64,000 nt of DNA. Origin: Octopus vulgaris (Eukaryota). The DNA lies in NCBI GenBank assembly GCA_951406725.2, contig OX597841.1, forward strand, positions 744,001 through 808,000, written 5' to 3'. A model generated the notes under the pieces. The model made no database searches and was not told where the DNA came from. It saw nothing but the letters and a program-made list of their open reading frames with translations. A program made the position numbers and the translations under genes. Positions 7,118 through 37,500 of this stretch are shown here, one piece after another (within the stretch, counting starts at the first letter, position 1; every line of letters begins with the position of its first letter).

Positions 7118-7216
<99 letters not shown>

Positions 7217-7746: not shown

Positions 7747-7807
<61 letters not shown>

Positions 7808-7893
7808 TGCTGTTGTTGTTGTAGTTGTTGCTGTTGTTGTTGTTGTTATTATTATTATTATTATCATTATTATTATTATTGTTGTCGTTGTTA

Positions 7894-7928
<35 letters not shown>

Positions 7929-7929
<1 letters not shown>

Positions 7930-10900
7930 TATGTTTGACTTTTGCTTTATATTTGTACAAGTTGGCTCCAAGTCTCACCCAGAGACCTCAAGAGACAACA
8001 GGGTTGGAAGTTCATGTTGTTGTTATGCCTAGTGTGCCATATATTTGGGGGGTGGGGATGTTGTACTAATGAATGTCTAAAAAAAAAAAAAAATTTTTTT
8101 TTTTTTTTTTTTTTTTTTAAACCGAAAATTATGTTTGTTTTAAACCTTGAGATTACATAGAGAGTATTTTGCGTAGGATATGAGCAGTTCCCATGAGCAC
8201 TATCTTTTGAACTTCTGCCATTTTTGGGTTTCCTGGTATCTGAGTTAGGTAGCTATCAGCCCCTTTTGCTATCATTACCAGGGCACCTATGACAACAGGT
8301 ATTGTTTTAGTCTTCAGCTTCCACATTTTGCTGATTTCTATTTCAAGATCTTTATATTTGCTCAGTTTTTAGTAGGTCTTGACAGATACGTTTATATCGA
8401 TTGGGACAGTCATATCAATGAGGAGGCATGTTCTTTGTTTGAAGTTTTTCAATATGATGTCTGGCCTATTTGCATCTATCTTCCTGTCAGTTTGAATGGT
8501 GAAGTTCCAGAGGAGTGAGATGTGGTCATTTTCAAGCACTGGGGGTGGTTTGTGTTCCCACCAGTTTTTTTCATGGGGCAAATCCAGGTTTTTACAGATT
8601 ACCCAGTGAATATATTGTGCAGCTCTATCGTGCCTGTTGAGATACTCTGTAGGCGCTAGAAGACTGCACTTGGAGACCACATGGTCAATGGTTTCATTTT
8701 GTTGCTTGCATACACGACACGTTGGACTGCTTCTGATCTTTAATATGTTGGCCTGGTAGTTTCTTGTTGGTAGGCATTGATCTTGAGCTGCTATGATAAA
8801 CCCCTCTGTTTCAGATTTTAAGCCAGAGGCCATTAGCCATTGATGGGTCAGGGCTTTGTCGATATCTGCATTATTCGCTCTCTTTGGGTATTTGCCATAG
8901 AGAGGTTTTTCTTGCCATTTATTATTCAGAATATCTAAGGCTGCAGTTTTGGCACGGGTTTTCATGCGCCTAGCTTTTTCTGTGCTTGTTTCTTGTATAT
9001 CTATCTCTAATTCCGAAATTGGTTGTATTCGGAGTTCACTTAGATATTCCTTTGCCTGTTTTGTGACTGAGTATGATGCTTTCTTGTTTTCATGTTTTGA
9101 GACAAGTTTTAGCATCCAGTCCTCAGAGTTTTTCAGGTAGGTGTCTAGGCCAATTGTAGCAATCTTCATTGTTATTGCCAGTTGCAAAAGACCACGGCCT
9201 CCCTCTTTTCTTGGCAGATATAGTCGTTCTGTATCTGCCTTAGGGTGGTGCATTCTATGCATTGTCAACAGTTTCCTTATTTTTCTGTCGAGCTGACATA
9301 TTTCAGTAATTGACCAGTTAACAATATTGAAACTGTAAGTCACGACTGGTATAGCTAATGCATTGATTGCTTCGATCCTGTTTCTTGCATTCAGCTCTGT
9401 CTTGAGTATTGCTCTCACTCTTCGATAGCATTCTCTCCTGATCCTTTCCTTCATCTCTGAATGCCTTATTCCGTTCCCTTCAATTATCCCTAGGTACTTG
9501 TAGCTCTCCGCTGGGTCTAGTTCTTTTATGACATTCTGTTGGTCAAGGTTAACGTTAGATGTTTCTGTCATTTTTCCTTTGATAAAGGTAGCCTTTGCAC
9601 ATTTATCGAGGCCGAATTGCATTCTGATGTCGTCACTGAATTGTTTGACTATCGCTAGTAAGCCCTTGAGTTGTTGATCATTTTTTGCAAAAAGCTTTAA
9701 ATCATCCATGTAAACGAGATGATTTATATTTTTATCAAACATTGTATACCCGTACTGCGCGTCATTGAGCAGCTTTGAGAGAGGTATTAAGGATAAACAA
9801 AAGAGGAGTGGTGACAGTGAGTCACCCTGGAAAATGCCACACGAAATTTTTACATCACCAGCATTTAGGGATTCACTGTCACTGTTCAGAGTTAGTGTGG
9901 TTCTCCATGATCTCATACTTACAGTCAAGAAGTTTCGCAGAGTTGGTGCTATCTTATACATTTCAAGGCATTTCCTAATCCAGCTATGTGGTAGGCTATC
10001 AAAATCCTTTTTATAGTCTATCCAGGCTATTGATAAGTTTTTGTGTCGTTTGTGACAATCTTCTAAGATCATCTTATTGATGAGTAGTTGGTCTTTACAG
10101 CCGTAGGATCCACGTTTACATCCTTTCTGTTCATTAGGGAATATGCTGCTGTCTGTTAAAAAACTATAGGTATATTCCGTCAGGACAGATGTTAGTGTTT
10201 TGTACATAGTTGTTAAGCAGGTTATGGGTCTATAGTTTTTTGGTTCATTTGTTTCTTCACTTTTTGGAAGCAGGAATGTTAACCCATTAACTAGCCAAGG
10301 AGGCATCCTACTAGGGTGTTGCAAAACATCATTGTACAGTTCTGTTAGCAGTTCATGGCTCTCTGGGAAGTCATTCAGCCAGAAGTTAGGAATTTTATCC
10401 TTTCCTGGAGACTTCCATTTGCTTGACCTCCTGAGAGCAGATCTTATATCTTCTACCTTGACACCCTCCCACTTTTGCTCTTCTAAGGGGTCCAGTTCTG
10501 TAGATATTCTGTCAATCCAGGGGGCCTTTTCGTTGTGTGTTTTTTCTTCTGCCCAGATTTTATTCCAAAATCTCTGCACTTCTTCTTTTGATGGTACAGA
10601 CCCTGCAGTAAACGCTGTATTTCCTATCTTCCTGTAAAAATTCTTGGTGTTATTTTTGAACATGTTGTTGTCCTTGAAAAATCTAACACGCTTTTCATAC
10701 CTCGCTATGCGGGCAGCTTTGGCAGATACCTTTTGTTTGATGGTTTCTATGGTGGCATCAATATCAAGTATAGTTTTCATATTGTATTTTTTCAGTAATT
10801 TTTGGGTTTTTGTAGGTTTGGTAATCTTGTGAGCCTTAAGGTTTTTCAAATATTCAATGTCAGATCTAAATATTTTAATTTGTTGTTGCAGACGCTCTTG

Positions 10901-12015
10901 CCAAGAAGGCTTTTTGTGGGACTGTTGCCGTTTTCTAATCTTTACACCACATAGGATCGTTGAGATTTTCGCGGATGCATAGTATAGGTGGTTGAGGTTT
11001 GTGATATCAACATCATTAACTGAAATTATATCCTTAAGTGCAAGCCGGATTTTACCAATTATTTTCATGTTTTGGTTAGAGTTGCGGATTTTAGGAAGTG
11101 TATCACGCTCATCCATGCTGGTTTCTTTAATTTTCAGCCATTCAATCATGATTTGATTTTTTAGCTCATGTAGTTCTGTTGGGTCAATATTTGTGTGACT
11201 TTCTTTATCTATTTGATGCTCATCTGTCTTAGTGTTTATGATTGGTTCAGGGCGTATTTCACTTTGCCTATCACTTATACTAACTCTTTCAATCCTCTCT
11301 TCGTTTTTATCCGCCCTGGGCTGGTCTATAATCATTTCCTCTGTATTATCTTCTCTAGCTGCAGCTTCGTTCATTTTATCCGATATTGCTTGTCTAACCT
11401 GATCAATCTCTACTTCAGTCAGTAATTTCTTTTTTATAATGTTTCTTCTAACATTGGCAAGCTTGTTACTGTCTATGTAGGGTCTTACTTCAGGGTGTTT
11501 CTGTCTCCAGTTTAAGTATGCTTGTACAGTGCTAGACTTATCTGTGGGGAAATATATGGCATGGTAGAAGGCCTCAAGAACTTCTTTATTATCTTCCCTA
11601 GACCATTTTTCTTTCTTTTTCTTTTGATTATTTGGTGATGAGCATGGATGGCCATCTGTTGGAATATTCCGGTTGTGGGGTTCGTCCAGCTCCTGTGTGT
11701 TGGGAAGATTTGATCCAGTAACTGATTTTTCAATCAGGATTTGGTTCAATTTTCGGGTACGTGGTCTTTTGTAATCCGCGCAATGACCAATGCGGTTTAT
11801 TGTTTGATTTGTTGACCTTGAAGCATGACGAGCATCCATTCTTATATTAGGAGATGGATCTGTCAGTTTAGGGTTCACTACATGTAAGCATTGCTCATAG
11901 CGCCGCTTCTTAAGACTAGCAGATCTATATTCGTCTGTATTTTTTTTGTTGATAGTTTTATCTCCGGACATTTTTTTTTTTTTTTTTCCCTTTCCTCCTC
12001 TTCCCTTCTTCAAGG
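7929..12015 (-). mobile_element. Near full-length R4/Dong-type (R2 superfamily, RLE) non-LTR retrotransposon in gene A intron 1
   Basis: Single long ORF with RT (QGDSLSP, YMDD), CCHC knuckle (CRVC..ETIDHVVSKC) and restriction-like endonuclease (RHD..., NRPDI..IDMTVP). The 3' end abuts (TAA)n. The 5' boundary is approximate. Confidence 0.9.
8153..11971 (-). pseudogene. RT-RLE polyprotein of the R4/Dong element with one premature stop
   Basis: ATG at 11971. A TAA at 8371-8369 interrupts VKTY*KLSKYKDLEIEI...ILRKILSM*. RT motif KKAFD reads KKDFD. Confidence 0.85.
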
Positions 12016-12898
12016 CTTACTGTGTCTGTATTAGTTCGAAATAATGAGAATAAAATACGGAGAAGGAAACGAAAAGAAAGGGAAAAAGACGGGATCTGTC
12101 AGTTATTATTGTTATTACTATCATCTTCACCACCATCACCATCATCAGCAACATCACCATCACCATCATCATCTTCAATGACATTGTTTTATGTGTAGCC
12201 ACAGCCACCATCAACACTCCATTGTGTTGGAGAATGGGTGGTTAAAGAATTCATGTTCTTTGGGTCTATAAATAGCCACGGTAGATGGTGGAGACAAAGG
12301 ACGTTAATGGTCAGTAAAAGGTCAGACCTGTTTACGTTTATTTATTTATTTATTTATTTTTTTCCTTTCTCTTTTCTTCTTCACCACATGCATATGTATA
12401 TGTATATATATGTGTATTCACTCACACATATTATCTGATGTTTTCGTCGAAGATTTTTTTTTTTTTTTTTTCTTTTTTTAAATAACTTTCTGAGTTCAAT
12501 GTTATGTATATATTTTTAAATTTCTGAATTCAGTTGTATGTATATAGTAGTAGGTGCTTAATTCCATAACTTTTTATCGTGCATTTAATTGTGTTGTTAC
12601 AATAAAAGGTAATTTAAAAGGCAATTTTACACATTCTTATAGTCATGAGAGACGACTAAATGTAAATGTTCACGCAGAATTGGAGATATTTATGTTTCTA
12701 ATTTTTCTTGTTAGGTGTACGTTTGTATGAGCTGTAGATATGTAAGTTTTTTTTTTTACTTATTTTGAGGGTAATTCAAATTACTTACAGTAAACAGTAG
12801 ATCTTCCAGTTTTCTACAGTTGACCTGCTGGGTTCGCTGTTGCCAGTTCAGAGCATCGTAAAAATACGTCCATCCTCTGTCACGTCCAGCCGCCTTCC

Positions 12899-12959
<61 letters not shown>

Positions 12960-13264
12960 TAGGGTACTCGTTAAGCGATGTGTAGCTTAATGATCTATTT
13001 TTCTCTTGTATACCCAAAAGTAAATGAACGTATCAATAACCAGTTTTACAAGTGTTTGTGTGCGTTTATGTGTGTGCGTGCATGTGTGTGTGTATGCGTG
13101 TATGCGTGTATGCATGTATGTAATCTTTCTGTCGAACAACGTAGGCTCGAAACGTAAAAGACTTTTTTTCTATTCCTGAGCGCTATACTAATACATTTGT
13201 TTGTTTCTACTCCACCTGCCTTCGTCTTTTGTTTATTTTCGTAAACTTTCCCTTTATGTATGTA

Positions 13265-13655
13265 CTAGCAGTATCGCCCGGCGTTGCTCGGGTTTGTTTC
13301 GACCCTATGGAATTCGAATTTTTAAAAGTATAAAATTTTCCATTATGTAGCTTGTTATTCTTTTCAAGTGAACATTTTTCTGGTTGAAATACAACGAAAA
13401 GTGGCGACACAGCAGTGAAAAAATCGTAAAAAATCGGGATTTTCATAGAAAAAAGCACCTTTTTGATGTAAATAATTCTTGGTGTTAACATGGTCCGATT
13501 TGAATTTTATCCTCTACGGAAGGAAAAGCAACCCTTTTTCTATCATACTCTCAATTTTGGTCAACTTGAGCCGCAGGGTCTCGGAGGAGATAGTGTAAGT
13601 TGAAGGTTGCCAAACCTGGCGCACACAGACAACTTCATCTTTATATAGAGAGAGA
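13265..13655 (-). mobile_element. Non-autonomous Helitron
   Basis: On the minus strand, 5' TC(TC)nTATATAA and a 3' GC hairpin CCCGAGCAACGCCGGG shortly before terminal CTAG. Inserted between A and T with no TSD. Confidence 0.75.
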
Positions 13656-15176
13656 TGACACACACACACATTAATACACAAACACACACACACACACACA
13701 CACATGTATGTATGTATGGGTGTGTGTATGTATATATGTACATGAACCCAGGACCATGTGTTTGGAACGTAGTTTGTTACCACGCAGCCACACCTGCCCC
13801 TATGTATGTGTGTGTGTGCGTATGTGCGTATTGGTAGATATATTATGCATGTATATATATGTATATATATGTATACATATTACATGTACATCTATATATA
13901 TATACATCTACACATAAAATACAAAATACAAAGTTATATCTTGATGTCGCTAGTGATAACAATACTCAAAATATATAACAGACTGGAATTGTAGGCCCGT
14001 CTCTTGCAATTTCGATCAATTGGATTTTGTACTTCCTCTTGTATAGAAGTATACGGCTGCAGCGAAATTCATTTGGACTTTCTTCTATCGAAGGCATTTT
14101 AACAAAAATGCTTCCGTAAAGACGGTGAAAATATTGTCAATTTTCCCAAACAGGGACACAATTCAATTTTTAAACAATAACCAAAGCCCCTTATCCGAAA
14201 GGGGAGGGTTACGGTTTACAATTATTTAACAAATGCAACACAACAACGTTTCCCTGACGCGGAACCAACAAACGTGATTATAATAGTCAAACAGTAATAA
14301 TAATAACAACAAACCTCTTTAATTTATCCCCATTTATGTGAAACCACTTATTCAAGTTCAAGTCATTGATGCAATTTTATACGAATTGCTAGTACACACA
14401 CACACATAATAAGGGTGAAAAATTGAATATTAATTTGATTAATATGAATTGAAAACCAGTGATATAGCATATAAGACCATAGCGGATCTTCCTCTAGCAA
14501 AAAGGATGACCAGTATTATGGTGTCATCCCTGTTATATAAATACTTTCACTTTAATTATTGCACACTTGCAAAGACCAAGTAGGAAAAAGTGTGGTGGTA
14601 ATGGAAGGAGTGAAGCACTTGAAATGAGAGAGGGAAATCGTAAAATATTGAGTTTTTTCGAATTTTTGCTTAATTGGGGGTGAAATTGAAAATACTATAC
14701 ATGCCATGACCCAATGGAATCTACTTCGAAAAATCATAGGTAAATTCCAATTGAAGAAATTCTATACTGCACAATTGTATTAAAAACAAACTATTTGGGA
14801 GGCAGAGAAAATCTGCCTTTTCTCATAAGAGATTATACAATTTTATTAAATATTTTATACACAGAGGAAAAATTCATGACAAAAATCGAATAATCGATTA
14901 TAAGTAATAACCAGCCTCTCCTGTTGATGAAACCTGGATGCTTCTCTTCGATGGCCAGCAATATCAATATTCGTAACGGAATTTTCATAGTTACAAAACT
15001 AAGAAAATGTATGTTTAAGTAATGACTTCAAATTTATCAAAATAACGGCGTGGTACATTGACGGAGTTTTATCAGTTTGAAATACCACTATATATTCTGC
15101 TTCGTTTCCATTAATATATTATGGATTCTAATGAGCAAATCTTTATTAAAACATAGAGGTAATAATAAATTTAAAT

Positions 15177-15316
15177 GTTGGGTTGTCCGGAAAGTTCGTG
15201 CCGATTTTTAAAGGAAAGAAAAAGGTCAATAAATACTTGACTTTACATTTTTAATCAACCAAATATGAAACATTTTGTTGCACAATGCGTCTCCATCTTT
15301 CCTTTCACTTGAAAAT
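15177..15316 (-). mobile_element. Mariner right-end fragment (same family as 2061-2514)
   Basis: TTGGGTTGTCCGGAAAGTTCGTGCCG TIR plus reverse complement of the transposase C-terminus. Confidence 0.8.
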
Positions 15317-15780
15317 TCATACATACATACATACATACATACATACATGCATGCATTCATACATAGATACGTACATACACACATACATGCATGCATGCAT
15401 GCATACATACATACATACATACATACATACATACATACATACATACATACATGCATAAATACATACAAACATACATACATACATACATACGTACATGAAT
15501 ACATACATACATACCTACATAAATACATACATACATAAATACATACATACATAAATACATACATGCATACATACCCACATGCATACATACATACTTACAT
15601 AAATTCATACATACATACATACATAACTACATACATACATACGTACATACATAAATACATACGTACATACATGCATACATACATACATACTTACACACAT
15701 ACATGCATGCATACATACATACATACATACATACATACATACATACATACATACATACATACATACATACATACATACAT
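15317..15780. repeat. (TACA)n tetranucleotide array
   Basis: Seen directly. Confidence 0.9.
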
Positions 15781-15913
15781 GCAAATAAAAATACCCTGTT
15801 GTTGATCTTGAAATTCCAATGAAGGAGCTTGGATGTAGGTTAGAAACCGATTATTTCTCTATGGGCAAGAAATCTTGAAATAAACTGAATAATGACATAC
15901 ATATGAGACTCTT

Positions 15914-15944
<31 letters not shown>

Positions 15945-16072
15945 AAGCGAGCATGAGTGCGTGTATGTCTACAGTGATAGATCCGAGTGTTTCATTTATT
16001 CACAATTTGATTTATTAATTTCACCGGACTATGAATACGCAGTCGTCCACACTTATCACTGCCCTTATTAGT

Positions 16073-16495
16073 GGTTACAGGGAAATGATTGCGGAGTCCC
16101 TTTTTGCCTTATGCTTTTCCTTGTCCTTTTTGTATTTCTTCGTTTGTTTTGCCGTTTTTTTCTCGGCTTTCAATACTCCCTCAGTCCTAACTGCCACTAG
16201 CAAGCTTTCCTCGCTTTAGAATATCTGTCTCATCAAGTTCCCGAGTTCGATACCTACGCAGTCTTGCACACTTATCAGTGCCTTTCCTCCATTTGCTCTC
16301 TTCGTGTAGAGACGATCAGTGTCTGCACGTGGATGATGGCCTCCATGCATCATTAGACGCTTCCTTGTCTTCCTGTCCAACTCTTATCTCTCCTCCTCTG
16401 TTCAGTGAAGGATCCCAGCGCCATACCGAACTACTGCGGCTGCGCGTAAGTTCATGGCCGAAATTATGTTCCAGGTATTCAGCTTTGAAGCCAAT
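16073..16495 (-). mobile_element. Paralogous copy of the old R4-like fragment (shared with 32192-32615)
   Basis: Near-identical reverse complement of 32192-32615, adjacent to the (TAC)n tract before exon 2. Confidence 0.75.
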
Positions 16496-16577
16496 ACTAT
16501 TACTACTGCTGCTGCTATTACTACTACTACTACTACTACTACTGCTACTACTACTGCTACTGCTACTGCTGCTACTA

Positions 16578-16609
<32 letters not shown>

Positions 16610-16650
16610 ACTGCTGCTACTGCGGCTACTACAAATACTACTACTGCTAT

Positions 16651-16681
<31 letters not shown>

Positions 16682-16697
16682 GCGATTATTATTTCAG

Positions 16698-16876
16698 ACA
16701 GCCAATGGATTAAAGCATATGCCATATCAATGAGTGCTGGTTCGAGAATCTATGAGTCATTCATGAATATAGGAAGTCCTTCAACCTGGAATGTGGACAA
16801 ATGCAATGGTACCTTCTGTCCTAACTTCTTCCGAAATCCCTTCCTTGATTTCTGGGAACATCTTCCAATTGATGAG
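16698..16876 (+). CDS. Gene A exon 2 (SQWIKAYAISMSAGSRIYESF...FFRNPFLDFWEHLPIDE)
   Basis: Acceptor TTTCAG ends at 16697 and donor GTACGT starts at 16877. 179 nt, the same length as exon 2 of B and D. Phase 1 to 0 fits the neighbouring exons. Confidence 0.85.
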
Positions 16877-16940
16877 GTACGTAGCCATATGCATACACAT
16901 ACACTAATATACATATAATAATAGTAATAATCGTGACGAA

Positions 16941-17190
16941 TATTTGCCTTTTAAATATGGCTAACCCCTAAGGGTGGATGCTACTGTAGTTTGTAGCCCC
17001 AGGAGAACACCTCCCAGAAACTCGAGTCCGTGTGTATCATAAGTTAAAGACGGGAAGGATGGCTTCCCTTTGCAAATACTGATAGGGCACAGAAAATGTG
17101 TCTATAGCCAGCGGGAGGAGGTATCCTCCTGGGGCTACAAATTACAGTAGCATCCACCCTAAGGGGTTAGCCATATTTAAATGGCAAATA
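16941..17190. mobile_element. MITE with ~65-bp terminal inverted repeats (TATTTGCC...GGCAAATA)
   Basis: Long TIRs, TA at both ends. Paralogous copy at 31666-31914. Confidence 0.8.
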
Positions 17191-17191
17191 C

Positions 17192-17424
17192 AGGCAATGG
17201 CCCAGTGGTTAGGGCAGCGGACTTGCGGTCGGAGGATCGCGGTTTCGATTCCCAGACCGGGCGTTGTGTGTGTTTATTGAGCGAAAACACCTAAAAGCTC
17301 CACGAGGCTCCGGCAGGGGATGGTGGTGATCCCTGCTGTACTCTTTCACCACTCTAAAGGCGGTGCTCCAGCATGGCCGCAGTCAAATGACTGAAACAAT
17401 TACAAAAAAAAAAAAAAAAAAAAA
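17192..17424 (+). mobile_element. tRNA-derived SINE family 3 head fused to a family 1 tail, with poly(A)
   Basis: TGGCCCAGTGGTTAGG...GTTTCGATTCCC head matches 28041-28200, followed by CTAAAGGCGGTGCTCCAGCATGGCCGCAGTC and a poly(A) run. Confidence 0.75.
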
Positions 17425-17991
17425 ATACGTCACATGTGTTGTAGCTACCGTTTATAACTCGCTCTTAGATTTTTTATTAATAGTCAATTCAATTGTTTGT
17501 TACGTTTTTGACCTACAAAAATTATTTATGAGGAAGGCGAAACAGTGTTGAATAGAATTCTATCCGCGGAAAACCGCAGTAATAAGAAAAGATTATCACA
17601 GACAAAAGAAACTCCTTTTGGGGTTTTTTTTATTTGATTTTGATTTTCCAGTTTCAGCTAATGAGCTGTGGCCATCCTGGGGCACCGCCATTTAATGAGT
17701 AAATGGGAAACAAAATCGATGAAATCAGCTTACCATACATGACTGATTTCAGCAGAAAGTAAAGCACGTGGACCTCGATGGTACTTGGATTCAAAGCTGA
17801 ATTACTTTGTCATTCTTCTTGTGAGATGGCAAGATTGAGTAACAAACAAAACCTTATGGGAACAGACGAACCAGGGACCTGTCAGAGCCCAGATCAAGAG
17901 CAGTCATGGATCATGGCTAGTTCAAAATATAAATTTATTTCGTCACTGTATTTATTGCGGAGATGTGTCAATTCATGGAATGTTTTACTCT

Positions 17992-18048
<57 letters not shown>

Positions 18049-18334
18049 GGGGGTGTAATAGAGCTAAAAACGGATGGATTATTTGGGTATAACGACACAC
18101 GTTTCCTTTGCAGAAGATTGTTATTATAGACACATTACGTCATGCAACATGGAATGGAATAGCTTTGAGATCGTATGTAATACTATGAAATAAGTTTGAA
18201 TAACATTACCAATTCTGTAGGTCATACTGTATTAGAGGTTAATTAGCGATGTATACCACATAGTATCATGGTAATATAGGAATTTTTCAAGTGAAGGGGT
18301 ATCAAATATGTTATTTGATTCATTTAGAGATATT

Positions 18335-18722
18335 AATCGTCTGGAAGCCGTTTAGCGACGTGCAACCGAGAGAATACCCTCCATCAGGCATTTGCCATAT
18401 TCTGAACGCCTTACTTCTCTGGGCATGGACACATTGAAACATTTTTTCACGCTGAGAGTTGCTGAAGCATGGAACAAACTGCCGGTATCAGTCGTTAGTT
18501 GTCGGAGCACAGCATCCTACAAAACTTCCATGCTTTCTGAGATTCGCCAACACTACACCTGATCTCCTCCCCTCCATACACACGCAAACATGTATCTGAC
18601 TCAAACACTGTTTGCTTTCCAGACATTTGTACTTTACTGCATATACTTTATACGCACTTTCTGACAAGTTCTGGTGCACCTGAGCACTGTATACAATAAT
18701 TTCATTATTATTATTATTATAG
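18335..18722 (+). mobile_element. CR1/L2-type LINE 3' fragment
   Basis: IPSIRHLPYSERLTSLGMDTL..FFTLRVAEAWNKLP, with an (ATT)n tail. Confidence 0.75.
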
Positions 18723-19042
18723 CAAGATACGGATTAGGTGATTGGCCAATCAAAATCATTAATTTTGCCTGTTATGCTTTCCTGTTTACACTGCGTGTGT
18801 GTCAGTGTGTCTCAGTGTGTGCGTGTGCGTGTGTGTGCGTGTGTGTATGTGTTTGTGTATTTACGTGTGTCTGTGTGTGTGTGTTTGTGTGAGATTGTGT
18901 GTGTGTCTGTGTTTGTGTGTGTGTGTGTGTGTGAGTGTTTGTGTGTGTGTGTGTGAGTGTTTGTGTGTGTGTGTGTGAGTGTGTGTGTGTGTGTGTACCC
19001 GTGTGTGTATATGTGTGTGCTACATGCTCATTTCTTTTGCAG

Positions 19043-19197
19043 GTAAAACTGGTAATCTATAAAAAGGGAACCGATTCGAAAACAATCATATTTGATGGAC
19101 GAAGTACAACCCTTAAAACCTGGTTCTCTCACGAAAACTTGAAAAGTTCACCATGGGACGACCTAGCTTCCGCCCCCAGATATAAGTACTTAATGAG
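19043..19197 (+). CDS. Gene A exon 3 (VKLVIYKKGTDSKTIIFDGRSTTLKTWFSHENLKSSPWDDL...)
   Basis: TTTTGCAG acceptor, GTGAGT donor at 19198, open frame, homologous to exon 3 of B and C. Confidence 0.85.
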
Positions 19198-19711
19198 GTG
19201 AGTATAGTATGTCTATATATCTTTTATGCTGGGGGTTTTTTCCGTTACGTAGAGACTTATCATGTTACAAAACATATAACTTTCGTAGGCAACAGATATA
19301 AAGTTTAACCTATACATTTAGACGCTAAACTTTCTGGAGACGAACAACATATGCCCAGGCTTTCAACAGTATATCTTCATTTGTTATGATATACAGAATG
19401 CTAATTTGAACTAATACTGCTGCCGTCTGTAAAGATGAAATATATCCGGCGTCCCGTCCAGGAGGGGAACCTATACGCCAAGAAACCGGGAAAGCGGCCC
19501 TTATGAGCCAGGTATGGCTTGAGAAGGAACAACCAGCCGCCGCTGCAAGAGGCTATAACTCTATTAATGGTACAATTTCTGTATTTTCAACACTACACGA
19601 CCAAATGGAATGCTTTCTCGTGACGAACCGCACAGTTTCCTGAATTTCACATTAAGTAGCATATTTTAAAGTGGGAAGCACGAAAATGTATTTTCACCTT
19701 AAAATGTACAC

Positions 19712-19900
19712 TCTTTTATTCTTTTACTCGTTTCAGTCATTTGACAGCGGCCATGCTGGAGCAGTTTTAGTCGAGCAAATCGACCCCATGATTTATTCTT
19801 TGTAAGCCTAGTACTTATTCTATCGGTCTCTTTGGCCGAACCGCTATGTTACGGGAAAGTAAACACACCAGCATCGGGGGGACAAACACAGACACACAAA
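19712..19900 (-). mobile_element. SINE family 1, 3' half
   Basis: Matches 3800-4000. Confidence 0.75.
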
Positions 19901-19908
19901 CACACATA

Positions 19909-19946
<38 letters not shown>

Positions 19947-19952
19947 CACACA

Positions 19953-20006
<54 letters not shown>

Positions 20007-20057
20007 CAGTTAATTTAAACATAAAAGCACAAAAAAACACAACAACGCGACATATAT

Positions 20058-20147
20058 TTACTTGGGCAAGTATTTTCTACTATAGCCTCGAGCTCACCAA
20101 AGCCTTGTGAGTGGATTTGGTAGACGGAAACTGAAAGCAGCCCGTCG

Positions 20148-20215
<68 letters not shown>

Positions 20216-20417
20216 TGTGTTTCTCCCCCCAACACCGCTTGACAAAAGATGCTGGTGTGTTTACGTCCCCGTAACTTAGCGGTTCTGCAAAAGAGACCGA
20301 TAGAATAAGTACTAGGCCTACAAAGAATAAGTTCTGGCTCGATTTGCTCGACTAAAGGCGGTGCTCCAGCATGGCCGCAGTCAAAATAACTGAAACAAGT
20401 AAAAGAGTAAAAGAGTA
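20058..20417 (+). mobile_element. SINE family 1, 5'-truncated
   Basis: CTTGGGCAAGT...GGCGGTGCTCCAGCATGGCCGCAGTC...AAAAGAGTAAAAGAGTAA. Confidence 0.78.
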
Positions 20418-20470
20418 AACGTTTAGGCTTTCATATTCTGAAACACATCCAACTTTTATTAATTCCACAG

Positions 20471-20631
20471 AGACTTTCGTCCCTTCGGTATATCAATAGG
20501 GGCTAAGTGTACAAAGATGAGTGGCTGGTTCATTGTTGATGCCGCACCGCCAACTTGTTCGTTTGGTTACAGAAAACATTCTCCTTCACTCCGTTATTCT
20601 GATAAAAACTCGAAAGTTTTTTGGAGAAACG
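20471..20631 (+). CDS. Gene A exon 4 (DFRPFGISIGAKCTKMSGWFIVDAAPPTCSFGYRKHSPSLRYSDKNSKVFWRN)
   Basis: CCACAG acceptor, GTGAGT donor at 20632. 161 nt as in B and C. Phase 2 to 1. Confidence 0.8.
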
Positions 20632-20962
20632 GTGAGTGATATTTTTATAATTTGTGTGTGTGTGTGTTTTTGTGTGTGTGTGTGTGTGTGTGTATGCGTA
20701 TGTATGTGTGTGGGCGTGTGCACGAGTGTGTGTGTGCGTGCGCGCGTGTATATGTGCGTGTATGTGCGCGTTTATGTGTGTGAGCCTTAATTCAACTGAT
20801 TAATTATTAAGAGCATCCCAACCACGACACTCTTGTATGTTTCCCACTCAACGATGTAAAGATTCGGCTGCTATTTCTAGTAATTCAAGTGAACGCGTAT
20901 GAAGACCTTCCACGATTTATTTCCATTCCTTTGGTTATTGATGTTGTTATTGTTACTTCCAG

Positions 20963-21012
20963 GTTATGCATTAGCAGACTCCATGGCCGTATTCATCCGC
21001 CTGAGGCAGTAG
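20963..21012 (+). CDS. Gene A exon 5, terminal (GYALADSMAVFIRLRQ*)
   Basis: TTCCAG acceptor and TAG at 21010-21012. Matches B exon 5 (GFEIGDSMAIFIRLKP*). Spliced CDS 334+179+155+161+50 = 879 nt stays in frame. Confidence 0.8.
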
Positions 21013-21040
21013 AATTTATCCAGCACATGATACTATTGTT

Positions 21041-24000
21041 GTTGTTAACGTCCATCCAATCCTGCTGACCACCACTAGTGATCCCAGTAGGTCAAGTATT
21101 ACCCGTTAATAAAGAATCCATATAAATATTCTAAGTTGTTAACGTCCATCCAATCCTGCTGACCACCACTAGTGATCCCAGTAGGATAAGTATTACCTTT
21201 TATTAAAGAATCCATATAAATATTCTAAGATGTATACGTCCATCCAATCCTGCTGACCACCACTAGTGATACCAGTACGTCAAGTATTACCCGTTAATAA
21301 AGAAACCATGTAAATATTCTAAGTTGTTAACGCCCATCAAATCCTGCTGACCACCACTAACGATCCCAGTAGGTCAAGTATTACCTGTTAATAAAGAAAC
21401 CATATAAATATTCTAAGTTGTTAACGTCCATCCAATCCTGCTGACAACCACTAGTGAACCCAGTAGATCAAGTATTACCTGTTAATAAAGAATCCATATA
21501 AATATTCTAAATTGTTAACGTCCATCCAATCCTGCTGACCACCACTAGTGATTCCAGTAGATCAAGTGTTACCTGTTAATAAAGAAACCATATAAATATT
21601 CTAAGTTGTTAACGTCCATCCAATCCTGCTGACCACCACTAGTGATCCCAGTAGATCAAGAATTACCTGTTAATAAAGAATCCATATAAATATTCTAAGT
21701 TGTTAACGTCCATCCAATCCTGCTGACCACCACTAGTGATCCCAGTAGGTCAAGTGTTACCTATTAATAAAGAATCCATATAAATATTCTAAGTTCTTAA
21801 CGTCCACCCAATCCTGCTGACCACCACAAGTGATCCCAGTAGGTCAAGTGTTACCTGTTAATAAAGAAACCATATAAATATTCTAAGTTGTTAACGTCCA
21901 TCCAATCCTGCTGACCACCACTAGTGATCCCAGTAGATCAAGTATTACCTGTTAATAAAGAATCCATATAAATATTCTAAATTGTTAACGTCCATCCAAT
22001 CCTGCTGACCACCACTAGTGATCCCATTAGATCAAATATTACCTGTTAATAAAGAATGCATATAAATATTCTAATTTGTTAACGTCCATCCAATCCTGCT
22101 GACAACCACTAGTGAACCCAGTAGATCAAGTATTACCTGTTAATAAAGAATCCATATAAATATTCTAAATTGTTAACGTCCATCCAATCCTGCTGACCAC
22201 CACTAGTGATCCCAGTAGATCAAGTGTTACCTGTTAATAAAGAACCATATAAATATTCTAAGTTGTTAACGTCCATCCAATCCTGCTGACCACCACTAGT
22301 GATCCCAGTAGATCAAGTATTACCTGTTAATAAAGAATCCATATAAATATTCAAAGTTGTTAACGTCCATCCAATCCTGCTGACCACCACTAGTGATCCC
22401 AGTAGGTCAAGTATTACCTGTTAATAAAGAATCCATGTAAATATTCTAAGTTGTTAACGTCCATCCAATCCTGCTGACCACCACTAGTGATCCCAGTAGG
22501 TCAAGTGTTACCTGTTAATAAAGAAACCATATAAATATTCTAAGTTGTTAACGTCCATCCAATCCTGCTGACCACCACTAGTGATCCCAGTAGATCAAGT
22601 ATTACCTGTTAATAAAGAATCCATATAAATATTCTAAATTGTTAACGTCCATCCAATCCTGCTGACCACCACTAGTGATCCCATTAGATCAAGTATTACC
22701 TGTTAATAAAGAATGCATATAAATATTCTAAGTTGTTAACGTCCATCCAATCCTGCTGACCACCACTAGTGATCCCAGTAGATCAAGTATTACCTGTTAA
22801 TAAAGAATCCATATAAATATTCTAAGTTGTTAACGTCCATCCAATCCTGCTGACCACCACTAGTGATCCCAGTAGGTCAAGTATTACCTGTTAATAAAGA
22901 ATCCATATAAATATTCTAAGTTGTTAACGTCCATCCAATCCTGCTGACCACCACTAGTGATCCCAGTAGGTCAAGTATTACCTGTTAATAAAGAATCCAT
23001 ATAAATATTCAAAGTTGTTAACGTCCATCCAATCCTGCTGACCACCACTAGTGATCCCAGTAGATCAAGTATTACCTGTTAATAAAGAATCCATATAAAT
23101 ATTCTAAATTGTTAACGTCCATCCAATCCTGCTGACCACCACTAGTGATCCCAGTAGATCAAATATTACCTGTTAATAAAGAATGCATATAAATATTCTA
23201 ATTTGTTAACGTCCATCCAATCCTGCTGACAACCACTAGTGAACCCAGTAGATCAAGTATTACCTGTTAATAAAGAATCCATATAAATATTCTAAATTGT
23301 TAACGTCCATCCAATCCTGCTGACCACCACTAGTGATTCCAGTAGATCAAGTATTACCTGTTAATAAAGAAACCATATAAATATTCTAAGTTGTTAACGT
23401 CCATCCAATCCTGCTGACCACCACTAGTGATCCCAGTAGATCAAGTATTACCTGTTAATAAAGAATCCATATAAATATTCTAAATTGTTAACGTCCATCC
23501 AATCCTGCTGACCACCACTAGTGATCCCAGTAGATCAAGTATTACCTGTTAATAAAGAATCCATATAAATATTCTAAGTTGTTAACGTCCATCCAATCCT
23601 GCTGACCACCACTAGTGATCCCAGTAGGTCAAGTGTTACCTGTTAATAAAGAAACCATATAAATATTCTAAGTTGTTAACGTCCATCCAATCCTGCTGAC
23701 CACCACTAGTGATCCCAGTAGGTCAAGTATTACCTGTTAATAAAGAATCCATATAAATATTCTAAATTGTTAACGTCCATCCAATCCTGCTGACCACCAC
23801 TAGTGATCCCATTAGATCAAGTATTACCTGTTAATAAAGAATGCATATAAATATTCTAATTTGTTAACGTCCATCCAATCCTGCTGACCACCACTAGTGA
23901 TCCCAGTAGATCAAGTATTACCTGTTAATAAAGAATCCATATAAATATTCTAAGTTGTTAACGTCCATCCAATCCTGCTGACCACCACTAGTGATCCCAG

Positions 24001-27000
24001 TAGGTCAAGTATTACCTGTTAATAAAGAATCCATATAAATATTCTAAGTTGTTAACGTCCATCCAATCCTGCTGACCACCACTAGTGATCCCAGTAGGTC
24101 AAGTATTACCTGTTAATAAAGAATCCATATAAATATTCAAAGTTGTTAACGTCCACCCAATCCTGCTGACCACCACTAGTGATCCCAGTAGGTCAAGTAT
24201 TACCTGTTAATAAAGAATCCATATAAATATTCAAAGTTGTTAACGTCCACCCAATCCTGCTGACCACCACTAGTGATCCCAGTAGGTCAAGTGTTACCTG
24301 TTAATAAAGAATGCATATAAATATTCTAAGTTGTTAACGTCCATCCAATCCTGCTGACCACCACAAGTGATCCCAGTAGGATAATTATTACCTGTTAATA
24401 AAGAATGCATATAAATATTCAAAGTTGTTAACGTCCACCCAATCCTGCTGACCACCACTGGTGATCCCAGTAGGTCAAGTGTTACCTGTTAATAAAGAAT
24501 GCATATAAATATTCTAAGTTGTTAACGTCCACCCAATCCTGCTGACCACCCCAAGTGATCCAAGTAGGTCAAGTATTACCTGTTAATAAAGAAACCATAT
24601 AAATATTCTAAGTTGTTAACGTCCATCCAATCCTGCTGACCGCCACTAGTGATCCGAGTAGGTCATGTATTACTTGTTAATAAAGAAACCATATAAATAT
24701 TCAAAGTTGTTAACGTCCACCCTATCCTGCTGACCACCACTAGTGATCCCAGTAGGTTAAGTATTACCTGTTAATAAAGAATCCATATAAATATTCAAAG
24801 TTCTTAACGTCCACCCAATCCTGCTGACCACCACTAGTGATCCCAGTAGGTCAAGTATTACCTGTTAATAAAGAAACCATATAAATATTCTAAGTTGTTA
24901 ACGTCCACCCAATCCTGCTGACCACCAATAGTGATCCCAGTAGGTCAAGTATTACCTGTTAATAAAGAATCCATATAAATATTCTAAGTTGTTGACCTCC
25001 ATCCATTCCTGCTGACAACCACTAGTGATCCCAGTAGGTCAAGTATTACCTGTTAATAAAGAATCCATATAAATATTCTAAGTTGTTAACGTCCACCCAA
25101 TCCTGCTGACCACCACAAGTGATCCCAGTAGGTCAAGTATTACCTGTTAATAAAGAATCCATATAAACATTCTAAGTTGTTAACTTCCATCCAATCCTGC
25201 TGACCACCACTAGTTATTCCCAGTAGTCAAGTATTACCTGTTAATAAAGAATCCATATAAATATTCAAAGTTGTTAACGTCCACCCAATCCTGCTGACCA
25301 CCACTAGTGATCCCAGTAGGTCAAGTATTACCTGTTAATAAAGAATCCATATAAATATTCAAAGTTGTTAACGTCCATCCAATCCTGCTGACCGCCACTA
25401 GTGATCCCAGTAGGTCACGTATTACTTGTTAATAAAGAATCCATATAAATATTCTAAGTTGTTAACGTCCACCCTATCCTGCTGACCACCACTAGTGATC
25501 CCAGTAGGTCAAGTATTACCTGTTAATAAAGAATCCATATAAATATTCAAAGTTGTTAACGTCCACCCAATCCTGCTGACCACCACTAGTGATCCCAGTA
25601 GGTCAATTATTACCTGTTAATAAAGAATCCATATAAATATTCTAAGTTGTTAACGTACATCCAATCCTGCTGACCACCACTAGTGATCCCAGTAGGTCAA
25701 GTATTACCTGTTAATAAAGGATCCACAAAAATATTCTATGTCGTTAACGTCCACCCAATCCTGCTGACCACCACTAGTGATCCTAGTAGGTCAAGTATTA
25801 CCTGTTAATAAAGAATCCATAAAAATATTCTATGTTGTTCACGTCCACGCGATCCTGCTGACCACCACTAGTGATCTTAGAAGGACAAGTATTACCTGTT
25901 AATAAAGAATCCATATAAATATTCTAAGTTGCTAACCTCCATCCAATCCTGCTGACCACCACTAGTGATCCCAGTAGGTCAAGTATTAACTGTTAATAAA
26001 GAATCCATATAAATATTCTAAGTGGTTCACGTCCGCCCAATCCTGCTGACCACCACTAGTGATCCCAGTAGGTCAAGTATTACCTGTTAATAAATAATCC
26101 ATACAAAATATTCTAAGTTGTTAACGTCCATCCAATCCTGCTGACCACCACTAGTGATCCCAGTAGGTCAAGTATTACCTGTTAATAAAGAATCCATAAA
26201 AATATTCTATGTTGTTCACGTCCACCCAATCCTGCTGACCACCACTAGTGATCTTAGAAGGACAAGTATTACTTGTTAATAAATAATCCATATAAATATT
26301 CTAAGTTGTTAACCTCCATCCATTCCTGCTGACCACCACTAATGATCCCAGTAGGTCAAGTATTAACTGTTAATAAAGAATCCATATAAATATTCTAAGT
26401 TGTTAACGGCCATCCAATCCTGCTGACCACCACTAGTGATCCCAGTATGTCAAGTATTACCTGTTAATAAAGAATCCATATAAATATTCAAAGTTGTTAA
26501 CGTCCACCCAATCCTGCTGACCACCACTAGTGATCTTCGAAGGACAAGTATTACCTGTTAATAAAGAAACCATATAAATATTCTAAGTTGTTAACCTCCA
26601 TCCAATCCTGCTGACCACCACTAGTGATCCCAGTAGGTCAAGTATTAACTGTTAATAAAGAATCCATATAAATATTCTAAGTGGTTAACGTCCATCCAAT
26701 CCTGCTGGCCACCACTAGTGATCCCAGTAGGTCAAGTATTACCTATTAATAAAGTATCCATATAAATATTCTAAGATGTTAACGGCCATCCAATCCTGCT
26801 GACCACCACTAGTGATCCCAGTAGGTCAAGTATTACCTATTAATAAAGTATCCATATAAATATTCTAAATTGTTAACCTCCATCCAATCCTGCTGACCAC
26901 CACTAGTGATCCCAGTAGGTCAAGTATTACCTGTTAATAAAGAATCCATATAAATATTCTAAGATGTTAACGTCCATCCAATCCTGCTGACCACCAATAG

Positions 27001-27246
27001 TGATCCCAGTAGGTCAAGTATTACCTATTAATAAAGTATCGATATAAATATTCTAAGATGTTAACGTCCATCCAATCCTGCTGACCACCACTAGTGATAC
27101 CAGTAGGTCTAGTATTACCTGTTAATAAAGAATCCATATAAATATTCTAAATTGTTAACCTCCATCCAATCCTGCTGACCACCACTAGTGATCCCAGTAG
27201 GTCAAGTATTACCTGTTAATAAAGAATCCATATAAATATTCAAAGT
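21041..27246 (+). repeat. Tandem satellite, 94-bp unit, ~66 copies, starting 28 nt after the gene A stop codon
   Basis: Consensus GTTGTTAACGTCCATCCAATCCTGCTGACCACCACTAGTGATCCCAGTAGGTCAAGTATTACCTGTTAATAAAGAATCCATATAAATATTCTAA. Period 21041 to 21135 is 94. Confidence 0.97.
21108..21113 (+). promoter_or_regulatory. First candidate polyadenylation signal (AATAAA) of gene A, repeated in nearly every satellite unit
   Basis: AATAAA ~95 nt after the stop codon on the sense strand. Confidence 0.5.
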
Positions 27247-27357
27247 CCGTCTTTTGAGTTGTGATTGGCTTTCTCTTACCTAAGAGACAGAGCTGTTGTT
27301 GTTGTTGTTGTTGTTGTTCTTGTTGTTGTTGCTGCTGCTGCTGTTCTAGTTCATACT

Positions 27358-28645: not shown

Positions 28646-28806
28646 CGTCGTTCCATACGACTTTCATTTTTGTGTCAGAAAAACGGATTGAAGGAGAATG
28701 ATCTTTGTAACCAAACGAACAAGATGCCGGAAGCTCATCGATAACCAGCCGGCCGCTTACTTTTGTACATGTGTTGCCTTTTGTTATATAGAAGCTATAT
28801 TTTCCT
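28646..28806 (-). pseudogene. Gene C exon 4
   Basis: GKYSFYITKGNTCTKVSGRLVIDELPASCSFGYKDHSPSIRFSDTKMKVVWND, 161 nt, CACAG/GTAAGT boundaries, conserved GW changed to GR. No exon 5 found downstream. Confidence 0.8.
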
Positions 28807-29036
28807 CTGTGAAGTTAACAAAAGTTGGTTGGGTTTCAGAATATGAAAATCTAAGCATTTATGAAATATACATCAATATGTCCGCTTTACACAATTGAAT
28901 CGGTCAGTGTTCAAAATAGCCTTCAGTGTAGCATACTTAAACTATATATCTGTAGCCTACGAAAAGTGTTTCTTACTATTATATTTCTCTACATAACGAA
29001 ACGAAAGAAAATAAGAAAAAAGATATGTAAACATAC

Positions 29037-29200
29037 TTATTTAGCTCCACTGAGAAACGCAATTTTGTGGCTGAAGCTAGATCGTCTCATGGTGAACTTT
29101 TCAAATTTTCCTGAGAGAAACAGGTTTTAAGGGTTGTATTTCGTCCATCAAATATCATAGTTACCACATCTGTTTGGTTTTCGTAGAGCACCAGTTTCAC
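29037..29200 (-). pseudogene. Gene C exon 3 with in-frame stop
   Basis: VKLVLYENQTDVVTMIFDGRNTTLKTCFSQENLKSSP*DDLAS. One conserved Trp codon is TGA (29089-29087) and another is Cys. AG/GT boundaries are retained. Confidence 0.8.
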
Positions 29201-33937: not shown

Positions 33938-34490
33938 CCATGATGTAGTACCAGGCAGTGGCTCTCATGGCTTCTCATCTTAACTGATTGGAAATGTTAT
34001 CGTGTACATTGTTTTGTCTTGGTATAAAAGATGGTCTACAGCAAATATTCTGCTCAATACCACAGATTTGCTTGTCAGTTGTTTGACCTTAACCAGTTGA
34101 GCATATCCCTTTGTGGATGATGATATGTGCATCTCTGATCACGATCAGAAGTAGTGGGGGAGCATCATAGCCATGTGTTGAGAGGGATTCTTTGGGGCTT
34201 GAATAATTCACCTCTGGAAACATGGGTGGTTCTTTCAACATCCTTAAACAACCCTTATTCAGGGACCTTTTGAGCAGGATGGGCTACTCAACCTGAAGAA
34301 ATTTCTAACTGGGCCCCACCTGCAAGGTCATGCGCTGTTTATCTTGATATGAGATCACCATGTCGCGCACATATGGTTTTGATGCATGTGCCTGGTGTAC
34401 CCTTATCAGACGGGTAGTCATGATGGGTATATTGGGCTTCGTATATTTTACCCTAGTGTCACTTTGATGGCATGAACTGCTCTCACACTC
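33937..34490 (+). mobile_element. Second copy of the ~550-bp (TAA)n-inserted element
   Basis: (AAT)n on both sides. Matches 7217-7746. A 5' fragment also occurs at 58091-58143. Confidence 0.7.
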
Positions 34491-34582
<92 letters not shown>

Positions 34583-37500
34583 GGAAAACTAAATCAGTAT
34601 ACCAAATCGCTTGCCCTATGGTTAATCTGGAAGCGCGTCCCCCAGGGAAGAGCCAGCCTGGGATCGAAAAGTCATCAACTGGCACAAACTCTTCTCCGAA
34701 TACGGACATGGATGGTCACTTGAACGGGAAATCCCCCAACTCGAGCTCTCCAAGTTCACCACCACAACCACCACAGAAAGAAAAATGTAAGCGGAACAAA
34801 TGGACCCGAGAAGAGTATAAAGAAGTAATATACGCTTATTACTATGCATTAGGTAGGCCATCTCAAGAGAGACACACCGCAAACTCTTACAGTATATGGA
34901 GAACACGGAATCAAGACAGTAGGCCCTATTTGGACGAGAACAAATTAGCAAATGTGAGGAGGGATATCCTTAGAAATAACAGACTCACAGACAGTGAAAT
35001 AAGCGCGATCAAGCACGCAACGGAAAATGACATAAATATAAGACACAAAGGAAATGAAGAATCAGATGAACAGTATAGCCCGCCACGAGGCTTAATTGAA
35101 AGACTGCCATCTGACCAAAGTACTCAAAGGCCTGAAGATACAAGAAATTCTATTGTACCTGTTAAAGATAGCCAGGAAAACGAAAAAACAACAGTAACTG
35201 AAGATCTCGCATTAGCTGAAGAACACAGAGAGTCTATGGCAGAAATGAGGCAGAAAATCCTGAATACGCTTGAAGTTGTAAAACATACAAGTATGAATGA
35301 TAGAGAACCACTTCATAAACTCTCAAATACAAACAAAAATAAAAAACAAATCCAAATTGGCAACTATGTAACAAATGAAATAATACGAGAATTAAAACCT
35401 GATTTTACTGAGTTAAATGAAATTATTTACGCTTCTGCTAGGGCAATTGAAACCAGCTGTATGCCCCCGAAAAAACAAAGAAAACAAAACCTGGGAAGAA
35501 ATCAAACCTGGAGAAGTAAAATTGAAAAAGAGATTGAATTTATGAGAGGGGAAATATCAATATTAAATGAACTAATATGTGGAAATGATGTAAGATCCAG
35601 AACAGGAAGAAATATGAAGAGAAAATTTGGATCCTCACCAAGAGAAGAACTGATATCAATAAAAGAAACGCTGAAACAAAAAGTCCAAGCAAAAGCCCAA
35701 AGAATACGAAGATTTGAAAAAGAAACAAGTTTTACAAGCAAAATAAGCTGTTCACATCCAATGCCAAAAAATTCTACAGAGAAATAGGGAAGGAGAAAGT
35801 AACCGTTAAAGACCCCCTCCCATGGAAGAAGTTCAAAACTTTTGGAAAAGGATTTGGAGTGACAAGAAGACGTACAACATAAATGCAGACTGAATTATAC
35901 AAACTGAAGGATCCTACCAAAATTTACAACAACAAGCATGGGAAGACATCACAATAGCAGACCTAAGAAAGGCACTCATGAAGGCCCATAATTGGAAATC
36001 CCCCGGTAAAGATAGGGTGCCGAATTTCTGGCTCGCATCGCTCCCATGCGCACACGGTAAGCTAGTTCAGCTGCTCAATGGAATTATGAGAGACCCAAAG
36101 AAAACACCTGAATGGTTAGCAAGTGGCATTACTTACCTACTCCCAAAGAATAACGAAACCAACCTTCCAAAAAACTATCGGCCTATAACCTGTCTATCTA
36201 CCACGTATAAAATCGTAACATCTATCCTGGCGGAGAAAACATATGCATTCATGGAGAAGAACGATATTTTCCCCATTGAACAAAAAGGGTGCCGCCGAGG
36301 CTCTTACGGATGCAAAGATCAACTGCTAATCAATCGTATGATCCTTGAGAACTGTCACAACAAACGCAGAAATCTCAGCACCGCATGGATTGACTACAAA
36401 AAAGCCTTCGACAGTATACCGCATCCATGGATCTTGAGATCGCTGGACATCTTCAAAATTTCCCCTGTGATTTCAAACTTCCTGAAGCACAATATGTCGT
36501 TGTGGAATACGAATCTCCAATTATACCACTCTAATGGAGTACTTGCCTCAGAAAATATAAACATCAACTGTGGAATTTTTCAAGGTGACTCACTTTCACC
36601 TTTAATATTCTGCATAGCCCTAATACCCCTTACAAGTGAATTAAACAGAACAGGGTATGGGTATAAAATTGCCAATAAAAAAATAAGCCACCTATTTTAT
36701 ATGGATGACTTAAAACTTTATGGTAAAGACAATAATGAACTTGAAGGCCTATTGCGCACCGTGAAAGCATTCAGCGATGACATCGGGATGGAGTTTGGAC
36801 TTGAGAAGTGTGCCAAGGCCACTTTCCAGAAAGGGAAAGTGAAGACCACAAATTCAGTCGTGTTAGATGTTGACACAGTCATAAGAGAGCTTGAGCAAGA
36901 ACAAACATACAAATATTTAGGGATAAATGAAGGCTCTGGTATTCAGCATGCAAGCATGAAAGAGAAGATCAGGAAGGAATGTTATAGGAGAGTTCGTGCA
37001 GTCCTGAAATCTGAACTAAATGCACGTAACAAGGTGTTAGCTATAAATTCCTTAGCAGTTACAGTTGTTACTTATAGCTATAATGTGTTGAACTGGAATA
37101 TGAGTGAAGTAAAGAATATAGATAGGAAAATACGCAAGCTGCTGAGTTGTAATAGGATGCACCACCCAAAGGCAGACGTAGATCGCCTTTACCTTCCCAG
37201 AGCCCAAGAAGGTCGAGGCCTGATCCAATTTGAACTAGCTTACAAAACAACCACAATTGGACTGGCCAAATATCTCGAAATATCGAATGACTGGATGCTA
37301 AAGCTCGTGGAAAATCACGAGAGACGAAAGAAGCTTCATTCTATCATAAAGGAAAGCAAAAAATTTGCTATTGATCTCGTGCAGGATACCCAAACTGAAC
37401 AACCCGAGGGAAGTACGGCAACTATTGTTGCAAAGAAGGTGAAAATGATGGCAATGAAAAAAGCGCACGAGCAATTGGCTGATAGGTGGGAGGAGAAACC

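Follow-up and report, generated by a model that had tools for sequence, protein, structure and literature searches.

What becomes of the end of a messenger RNA when the polyadenylation signal of its gene has been multiplied dozens of times in tandem? The question is raised by a locus of Octopus vulgaris lying within a 64,000-nucleotide stretch of contig OX597841.1 (assembly GCA_951406725.2, positions 744,001 to 808,000 of the forward strand), hereafter called the window, in which an intact gene, gene A, is followed by a long array of 94-bp units that nearly all contain AATAAA. The reading favoured here, at a probability of roughly 0.55, is that the array is a neutral minisatellite of the 3′ untranslated region (3′ UTR) which masks its own poly(A) signals, a leaky ladder of transcript ends being its by-product. 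The features needed at the outset are the following.

21041 to 27246, plus strand: array of 66 units of 94 bp, the family 3′ UTR end with AATAAA
21108 to 21113, plus strand: first AATAAA, 95 nt past the stop codon; predicted to be paired, probability of being unpaired 0.02
27218 to 27223, plus strand: last AATAAA, behind which a junction hairpin is impossible
27244 to 27283, plus strand: unique G/U-rich flank outside the amplified unit, G+U share 0.61

Tandem Repeats Finder returned 66.0 copies of period 94 with 94% matches (score 10882) on the plus strand, and the array was split into 66 units, 64 of them of 94 nt, one of 93 and one of 95. AATAAA is present on the plus strand in 65 of the 66 units and ATTAAA in unit 2; the hexamer occupies unit positions 68–73, and the amplified unit ends about 20 nt past it. 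Between the TAG at 21010–21012 and the array start lie 28 unique nucleotides, and gene A, with its five GT-AG exons, has an open frame of 292 codons. The number of units, the start of the array 28 nt after an intact gene and the signal in nearly every unit were thus found as described in the initial annotation. Elsewhere in the window AATAAA occurred in 50 of 614 tiles of 94 nt, and it occurred in 9% of 10,000 shuffles of the monomer. The array itself is far above this chance level, the 65 hexamers counting as one inherited event and not as independent hits.

The units differ pairwise by a mean of 6.0 of 94 nt, with 53 distinct sequences among the 64 full-length ones, and a block of 12 units is duplicated at 21886–24046, where units 10–20 and 22–32 differ by 0–3 nt each (a comparison that omitted the 93-nt unit 13). 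The unit join is flanked by GT on both sides. A head-to-tail unit within 10–100 bp in many copies is the arrangement of a minisatellite. Stops in every frame argue against a coding role. Retrozymes are tandem repeats that bear ribozymes; an Rfam scan of 20900–21700 gave a single match (E 6, far under the gathering score), and no known RNA family or self-cleaving ribozyme motif was found in that segment.

The monomer is, judging by the family gene models, the 3′ UTR end of a subfamily with protein ends like those of P0023 and P0026, since in 7 O. vulgaris gene models the last exon runs into the monomer, at 9 places and in off-frame readings (among 33 stored proteins, on one 29.19-Mb contig; some of the 7 models may be near-duplicates). 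This agrees with the earlier proposal of an amplified gene end, as opposed to a satellite foreign to the gene. The monomers in these models are all of one type, shared with a solo copy in the window, and none is of the array type; a search for gene models with an A-type off-frame last exon gave no candidate, related models do exist, and the result is uninformative. Within the window the monomer forms a single array and a single solo copy, and it was also seen at the 9 places in family gene models.

1611 to 1700, plus strand: solo copy of the family-type monomer, 90 nt, 89.9% identical to the array monomer

Array aside, the only strong monomer match within the window was this copy (1612–1700, 89.9% over 89 nt, E 7e-30), and its translation equals P0003 over 22 of 22 residues. 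Two paralogous segments (2650–3700 and 44776–45334) hold 8–10 other bases at the corresponding site. A retrocopy origin is unsupported, because no poly(A) tail was found at 1611–1700 and there is no real target-site duplication: the similar words flanking the copy, which had been considered as one, also occur in both paralogous segments that lack the monomer. The copy looks, from its sequence context, like a templated insertion from the 3′ end of a family gene. The non-coding segment in which it lies exists in three copies that are 68–72% alike (894–2061, 2650–3700 and 44776–45334), upstream of gene A and of its paralogue B, with no long open frame.

Between the array consensus and the solo or family type there are 9 differences in 89 positions, and 6 of these create a 7-bp helix absent from the family type; individual units differ from the solo copy by 11.5 nt on average. 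The array was likely made by slippage and then by unequal exchange.

The initial annotation took the units to be complete poly(A) sites, each followed by a GU-rich element, a reading that found no support. Internal units had a G+U share of 0.43 in the segment 15–60 nt past the hexamer, at the level of background AATAAA (median 0.46 over 58 sites), as compared with 0.61 for unit 66. The sequence downstream of an internal site is the start of the next unit, in which the 6-nt GUUGUU is the only G/U run; GTTGTT, said to open the following unit, does so in 43 of 66 units and is less uniform than claimed. The unique flank at 27244–27283 is likely the original downstream element. Cleavage sites of octopus have A(A/U)UAAA or variants in 71% of cases by FLAM-seq, according to the accessible part of PMC9699675. 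In the supplement text of that paper (24,410 characters) the cleavage sites of five family loci gave 0 matches; its data files may contain some.

Folding predictions point in the same direction for the hexamer itself. With folding windows of 126 nt the predicted probability that the hexamer is unpaired had a median of 0.03 and was below 0.2 in 54 of 66 units, as compared with 1 of 56 background AATAAA sites (median 0.92) and 3 of 300 shuffled tandem monomers. When pairs were restricted to 45 nt, masking was predicted in 40 of 66 units and in 0 of 56 background sites. The predicted value was 0.63–0.81 for unit 66 and 0.73 for the solo copy, and accessibility ranged from 0.01 to 0.67 across the units. 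In the predicted junction hairpin AAUAAA pairs with the beginning of the unit behind it, as in the following example.

22888 to 22928, plus strand: predicted junction hairpin (37 °C: −4.4 kcal/mol; 18 °C: −8.6 kcal/mol)

With the G/U-rich flank left behind at unit 66 and the hexamer predicted to be paired at the joins, the internal copies look like weak poly(A) sites in these models.

Transcript evidence was sought in public sequencing runs, of which 24 were returned, in the form of contigs only (best share 0.19; RNA guessed for 23). The contigs of four runs, X1–X4, from two studies with three runs from one, were aligned to 20790–21140, which includes one unit, and the other 20 runs, with shares of ≤0.10, were left unused. 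Depths are contig means and not copy numbers, and all results refer to the contigs listed.

The joint between units, 21134 to 21041, was present in 4 of 4 runs. Unit contigs had depths of 60–62 in X1, 65.3 in X2 and 5.39 in X4, as compared with 8.72, 8.33 and 3.41 for the contigs of the spliced exon 5, which gives joint-to-exon ratios of about 7–8 in X1 and X2 and of 1.6 in X4. The intron at 20910–20957 had zero cover in these three runs, which have contigs with a loose end at exon 5 and no gap up to 21069–21080, across the first untranslated segment.

21013 to 21040, plus strand: unique start of the 3′ UTR, 28 nt, under the spliced contigs of X1, X2 and X4

Transcripts ending ahead of 21041 were named earlier among the findings that would refute the proposal; instead, the spliced contigs continue beyond 21041 into unit 1, and the first A(A/T)TAAA past the stop is the one at 21108. 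In X3 the intron was covered at a depth of 12–39 and the summed unit depth was 170–535 in most bins. The unit-1 variant at 21104 was missing from all four runs. On this haplotype, transcripts ending in unit 1 would yield a depth ratio of 0.35 and no joint, those passing about 20 units a ratio of 7.3, and those of the full array a ratio of 22; a cleavage of 0.05 per unit would yield 6.8 and one of 0.2 would yield 1.5. The ratios and joints point to leaky read-through: the joint is present, and in X1 and X2 its contigs are about 7–8 times as deep as those of the spliced last exon. In the X1 and X2 contigs an exon-3-like end is joined straight to exon 5 at 20963, a junction that would shift the frame into the UTR, and the same off-frame reading of exon 5 is seen in public gene models.

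The last 94 bases of the 3′ UTR, including AATAAA, stand in 66 tandem copies, which slippage and unequal exchange likely made, and the joins so created are predicted to fold most signals into a hairpin. On the reading favoured here, transcripts would traverse many units and finish at open units dotted along the array or at its final unit, cleavage being leaky along the array and low per unit, and the joint contigs would represent sense mRNA of gene A or of an A-type relative. The product would be a set of mRNAs with an identical protein and 3′ UTRs that range from 0.1 to about 6.2 kb by increments of 94 nt, long forms predominating.

Several points weigh against this. The contigs carry no strand, end or level, and RNA status is guessed for all four runs; no poly(A) loose end was present among the contigs listed, and contigs cannot show ends, so that neither this absence nor that of intron cover is proof. 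The 30 nt before exon 5 in X1 and X2 match the end of gene A exon 3 at only 19 of 30 positions, on which ground the transcript is assigned to an A-type paralogue or divergent allele with exon 4 skipped, so that expression of gene A is only putative. X3 may be DNA, since its intron is covered, and the slight excess in X4 could be DNA carry-over. As regards structure, the junction hairpin is weak alone, at the energies given above, and the masking is not specific to the junction, as the best folds of the lone monomer and of the solo copy pair the hexamer with their own 5′ end; the unpaired probability of unit 66 falls to 0.14 in a 200-nt window. As regards origin, one monomer copy per paralogue is itself a deduction from gene models that stop short of the end of the unit. 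The monomer folded better than shuffles on the plus strand to a modest extent only (z −2.3, 5 of 200), and the minus strand folded no better.

The alternative that survives best, improbable though worth serious attention, is an inert DNA minisatellite in which the first AATAAA ends most mRNAs, and in which array RNA comes from antisense run-on of the convergent paralogue C, from another array locus, from unprocessed RNA or from DNA carry-over. It draws on the lack of contig strand and ends and on the spliced partner in X1 and X2 that differs from the exon of gene A, on the weak predicted hairpin, and on the general tendency of polymerase to reach proximal sites first; moreover, C lacks exon 5 here, and on its strand the monomer is free of signals. 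Against it stand the zero intron cover in X1 and X2 at unit depths of 60–65, whereas carry-over would need about 3-fold single-copy DNA cover (an estimate for an array of this size, using 22 consensus words per copy), and the single AATAAA on the strand of C at 28130, which precedes the array. The stop of the spliced contigs at 21069–21070 falls where their path would merge into the repeat cycle. If transcripts merely stop in unit 1, the locus is an ordinary minisatellite.

Less probable still is a selected regulatory ladder that tunes 3′ UTR length, stability or output, for instance by copy number or by a hairpin opened by temperature. The hexamer has 1 variant in 64 units, the 7-bp helix is formed by 6 of the 9 differences between array and family, cooling from 37 to 18 °C doubles the energy predicted for the hairpin, and the joint-to-exon ratios vary by study (about 7–8 as against 1.6). 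However, equal constancy was found in 11 of 94 hexamer windows, paired columns had 0.79 alleles per column as compared with 0.83 for unpaired ones, a value that 44 of 93 shifted controls equalled or undercut, and the predicted stems showed no compensatory base pair among the units. These comparisons gave no sign of raised conservation of AATAAA or of the stems, and the ratio differences may stem from allele, tissue or assembly. The array seems to be largely a neutral by-product. A more particular version, a poly(A)-site rheostat of 65 self-masked signals in series whose hairpin would open with temperature or RNA-binding state, is a speculation to which we give little credence. The animal lives at 15–20 °C. 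If the rheostat were real, repeat number and water temperature would together set how long the 3′ UTR of a secreted lectin-like octopus protein is.

A redundant terminator or insulator between A and C, as entertained initially, is very unlikely. The array does sit between the 3′ ends of A and C, which form inverted, colinear arms, and it carries 65 hexamers in the direction of A. On the other hand, the joint in RNA-like contigs suggests leakiness, the unit has no signal on the strand of C, and the insulator has little to act on because C is broken in this window. We hold equally small the chance of a transposon-derived or genome-wide satellite inserted behind the gene: the solo copy does lie in a foreign context, but the monomer stands behind the last exon at the 9 places in 7 family models noted above, has no Rfam family and gave no match to the long interspersed nuclear element (LINE) or short interspersed nuclear element (SINE)-like repeats of the window. 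An assembly artefact inflating a short repeat is hardly credible, given 53 distinct sequences in 64 units, variants that depend on position, the joint and variant units in independent runs, and a summed unit depth in X3 of 170–535 against an intron depth of 12–39.

The locus can be compared with several known systems. Minisatellites or variable number tandem repeats in 3′ UTRs are exemplified by the 40-bp repeat of SLC6A3. The octopus array shares with them head-to-tail units of less than 100 bp and, as is usual for slippage and unequal exchange, variant units and block duplications, and differs from them in that its unit includes the gene's own AATAAA and in its length of 6.2 kb.

Tandem 3′ UTR alternative polyadenylation is described for 4,800 octopus genes in the accessible part of PMC9699675, where the median 3′ UTR of the octopus genus is about 380 nt. 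The present terminal exon likewise has multiple canonical signals (65 AATAAA and one ATTAAA) with an apparently stronger distal site; it differs in having 66 near-identical candidate sites at a fixed 94-nt spacing that come from expansion of a DNA repeat. In the HIV-1 poly(A) hairpin a stem-held AAUAAA suppresses early polyadenylation and the copy with a different downstream context is used, a structure that was tested and found to be tuned (PMC3432602, as far as accessible). The pairing of AAUAAA in a stem is common to both, as a prediction in octopus (54 of 66 units below 0.2 unpaired), whereas the octopus stem is weak, created by the tandem join and without conservation.

D4Z4 arrays, in which DUX4 uses pLAM, consist of 3.3-kb whole-gene units with the signal outside the units (PMC12376486, in the portion available). 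There, as is likely here, unique sequence past the last unit completes the poly(A) site; the octopus array repeats only the UTR end, and has a hexamer in every unit. MSY2 of DDX3Y is a minisatellite of 3–4 copies at the 5′ end, at the start site (PMC3039753, accessible text). Both represent a single-copy element of about 100 nt at a gene end that was tandemly amplified in one lineage, at the 3′ end and in 66 copies in octopus. The accessible portions of PMC3648361, PMC5796225 and bioRxiv 10.64898/2026.03.05.709741 contained no closer case. Searches of the open-access literature concerning poly(A) signals and repeats turned up no gene whose poly(A)-signal unit was amplified in tandem, which is weak evidence of novelty.

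Should the favoured reading be true, the locus would be a clean natural case of a multiplied poly(A) signal in which more signals mean weaker termination, because the duplication omits the downstream element and the join hides the hexamer. It would also be an example of a 3′ UTR leaping from about 0.1 kb to several kb. With 66 near-identical candidate sites and unit-specific variants, it offers an in vivo single-gene setting for the control of site choice by RNA structure.

Gene A itself consists of the following exons.

6680 to 7013, plus strand: exon 1, with a signal-peptide-like hydrophobic stretch and a PAN-like domain (Pfam PAN_3, E 0.11, below cutoff)
16698 to 16876, plus strand: exon 2, with AG/GT ends and an open frame
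19043 to 19197, plus strand: exon 3
20471 to 20631, plus strand: exon 4
20963 to 21012, plus strand: exon 5, coding part

Its TAG comes two codons earlier than the stop of its relatives P0023 and P0026, which have Gln there (21004–21012). The 6-mer that forms this early stop recurs at unit positions 45–50, within the cluster of array-specific changes that makes the 7-bp helix, and a template switch behind the shared 6-mer is possible on sequence grounds.

Of 132 candidates, 28 proteins were matched by exon 1, and they belong without exception to Octopus vulgaris, O. sinensis and O. bimaculoides. The Atlas model of the relative P0009 matched a mollusc PAN-containing cluster (TM 0.86) and a 'Fibrinogen C-terminal' cluster (TM 0.84), both below the bar for naming. 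For a newly predicted fold of P0009 (mean predicted local distance difference test score 54.9) no PDB match was found at E ≤ 0.001, the top rows being intelectin and fibrinogen domains at E 0.04–0.1. As a lead from these models, the family is likely to comprise secreted PAN plus fibrinogen-like proteins of an expanded cluster; a search for literature on it returned nothing. In the public gene model P0002, part of exon 1 of gene A is fused with a retrotransposon frame, with C exon 1 read in antisense and with B exon 4 (pieces 89–100% identical), so that the public annotation of the cluster is unreliable.

The paralogues in the window are laid out as follows.

47724 to 54627, plus strand: paralogue B, intact, 294 amino acids, with a different last-exon type; monomer absent from its 3′ end
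28646 to 29200, minus strand: paralogue C, exons 3 and 4, with an in-frame stop in exon 3
40075 to 40405, minus strand: exon 1 of paralogue C; identity to O. sinensis P0023, 97%

B gave no monomer match, in agreement with the earlier remark that it has no array. Exons 2 and 5 of C were not found within the window, and no exon 5 lies between 28646 and the array; the convergent orientation attributed to C stands, and C is, on its sequence, broken here. In the inverted duplication of A and C (6669–20691 as compared with 40415–28587) some intron segments are 89–98% alike and exons about 75%, which suggests recent conversion or shared young insertions. An orphan exon 2 of a fourth paralogue lies at 57813–58013 on the minus strand, and its exons 3–5 were not found in the window.

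Intron 1 of A and of C contains retrotransposons of the non-LTR kind at 8369–12016 (minus strand), 34468–38251 (plus strand) and 38724–39671 (plus strand), the first with an open 1215-codon frame holding RVT_1 (E 1e-25) and zf-RVT. A 184-bp element, which we take to resemble an octopus SINE, occurs in 2.4 tandem copies at 57098–57535 and again at 5665–5878 and 47463–47605. Very long compound AAC/AAT/AAG microsatellites extend over 58143–63997 and include a stretch of about 1.45 kb that is duplicated internally, with one 25-mer array occurring at both 58322 and 59771.

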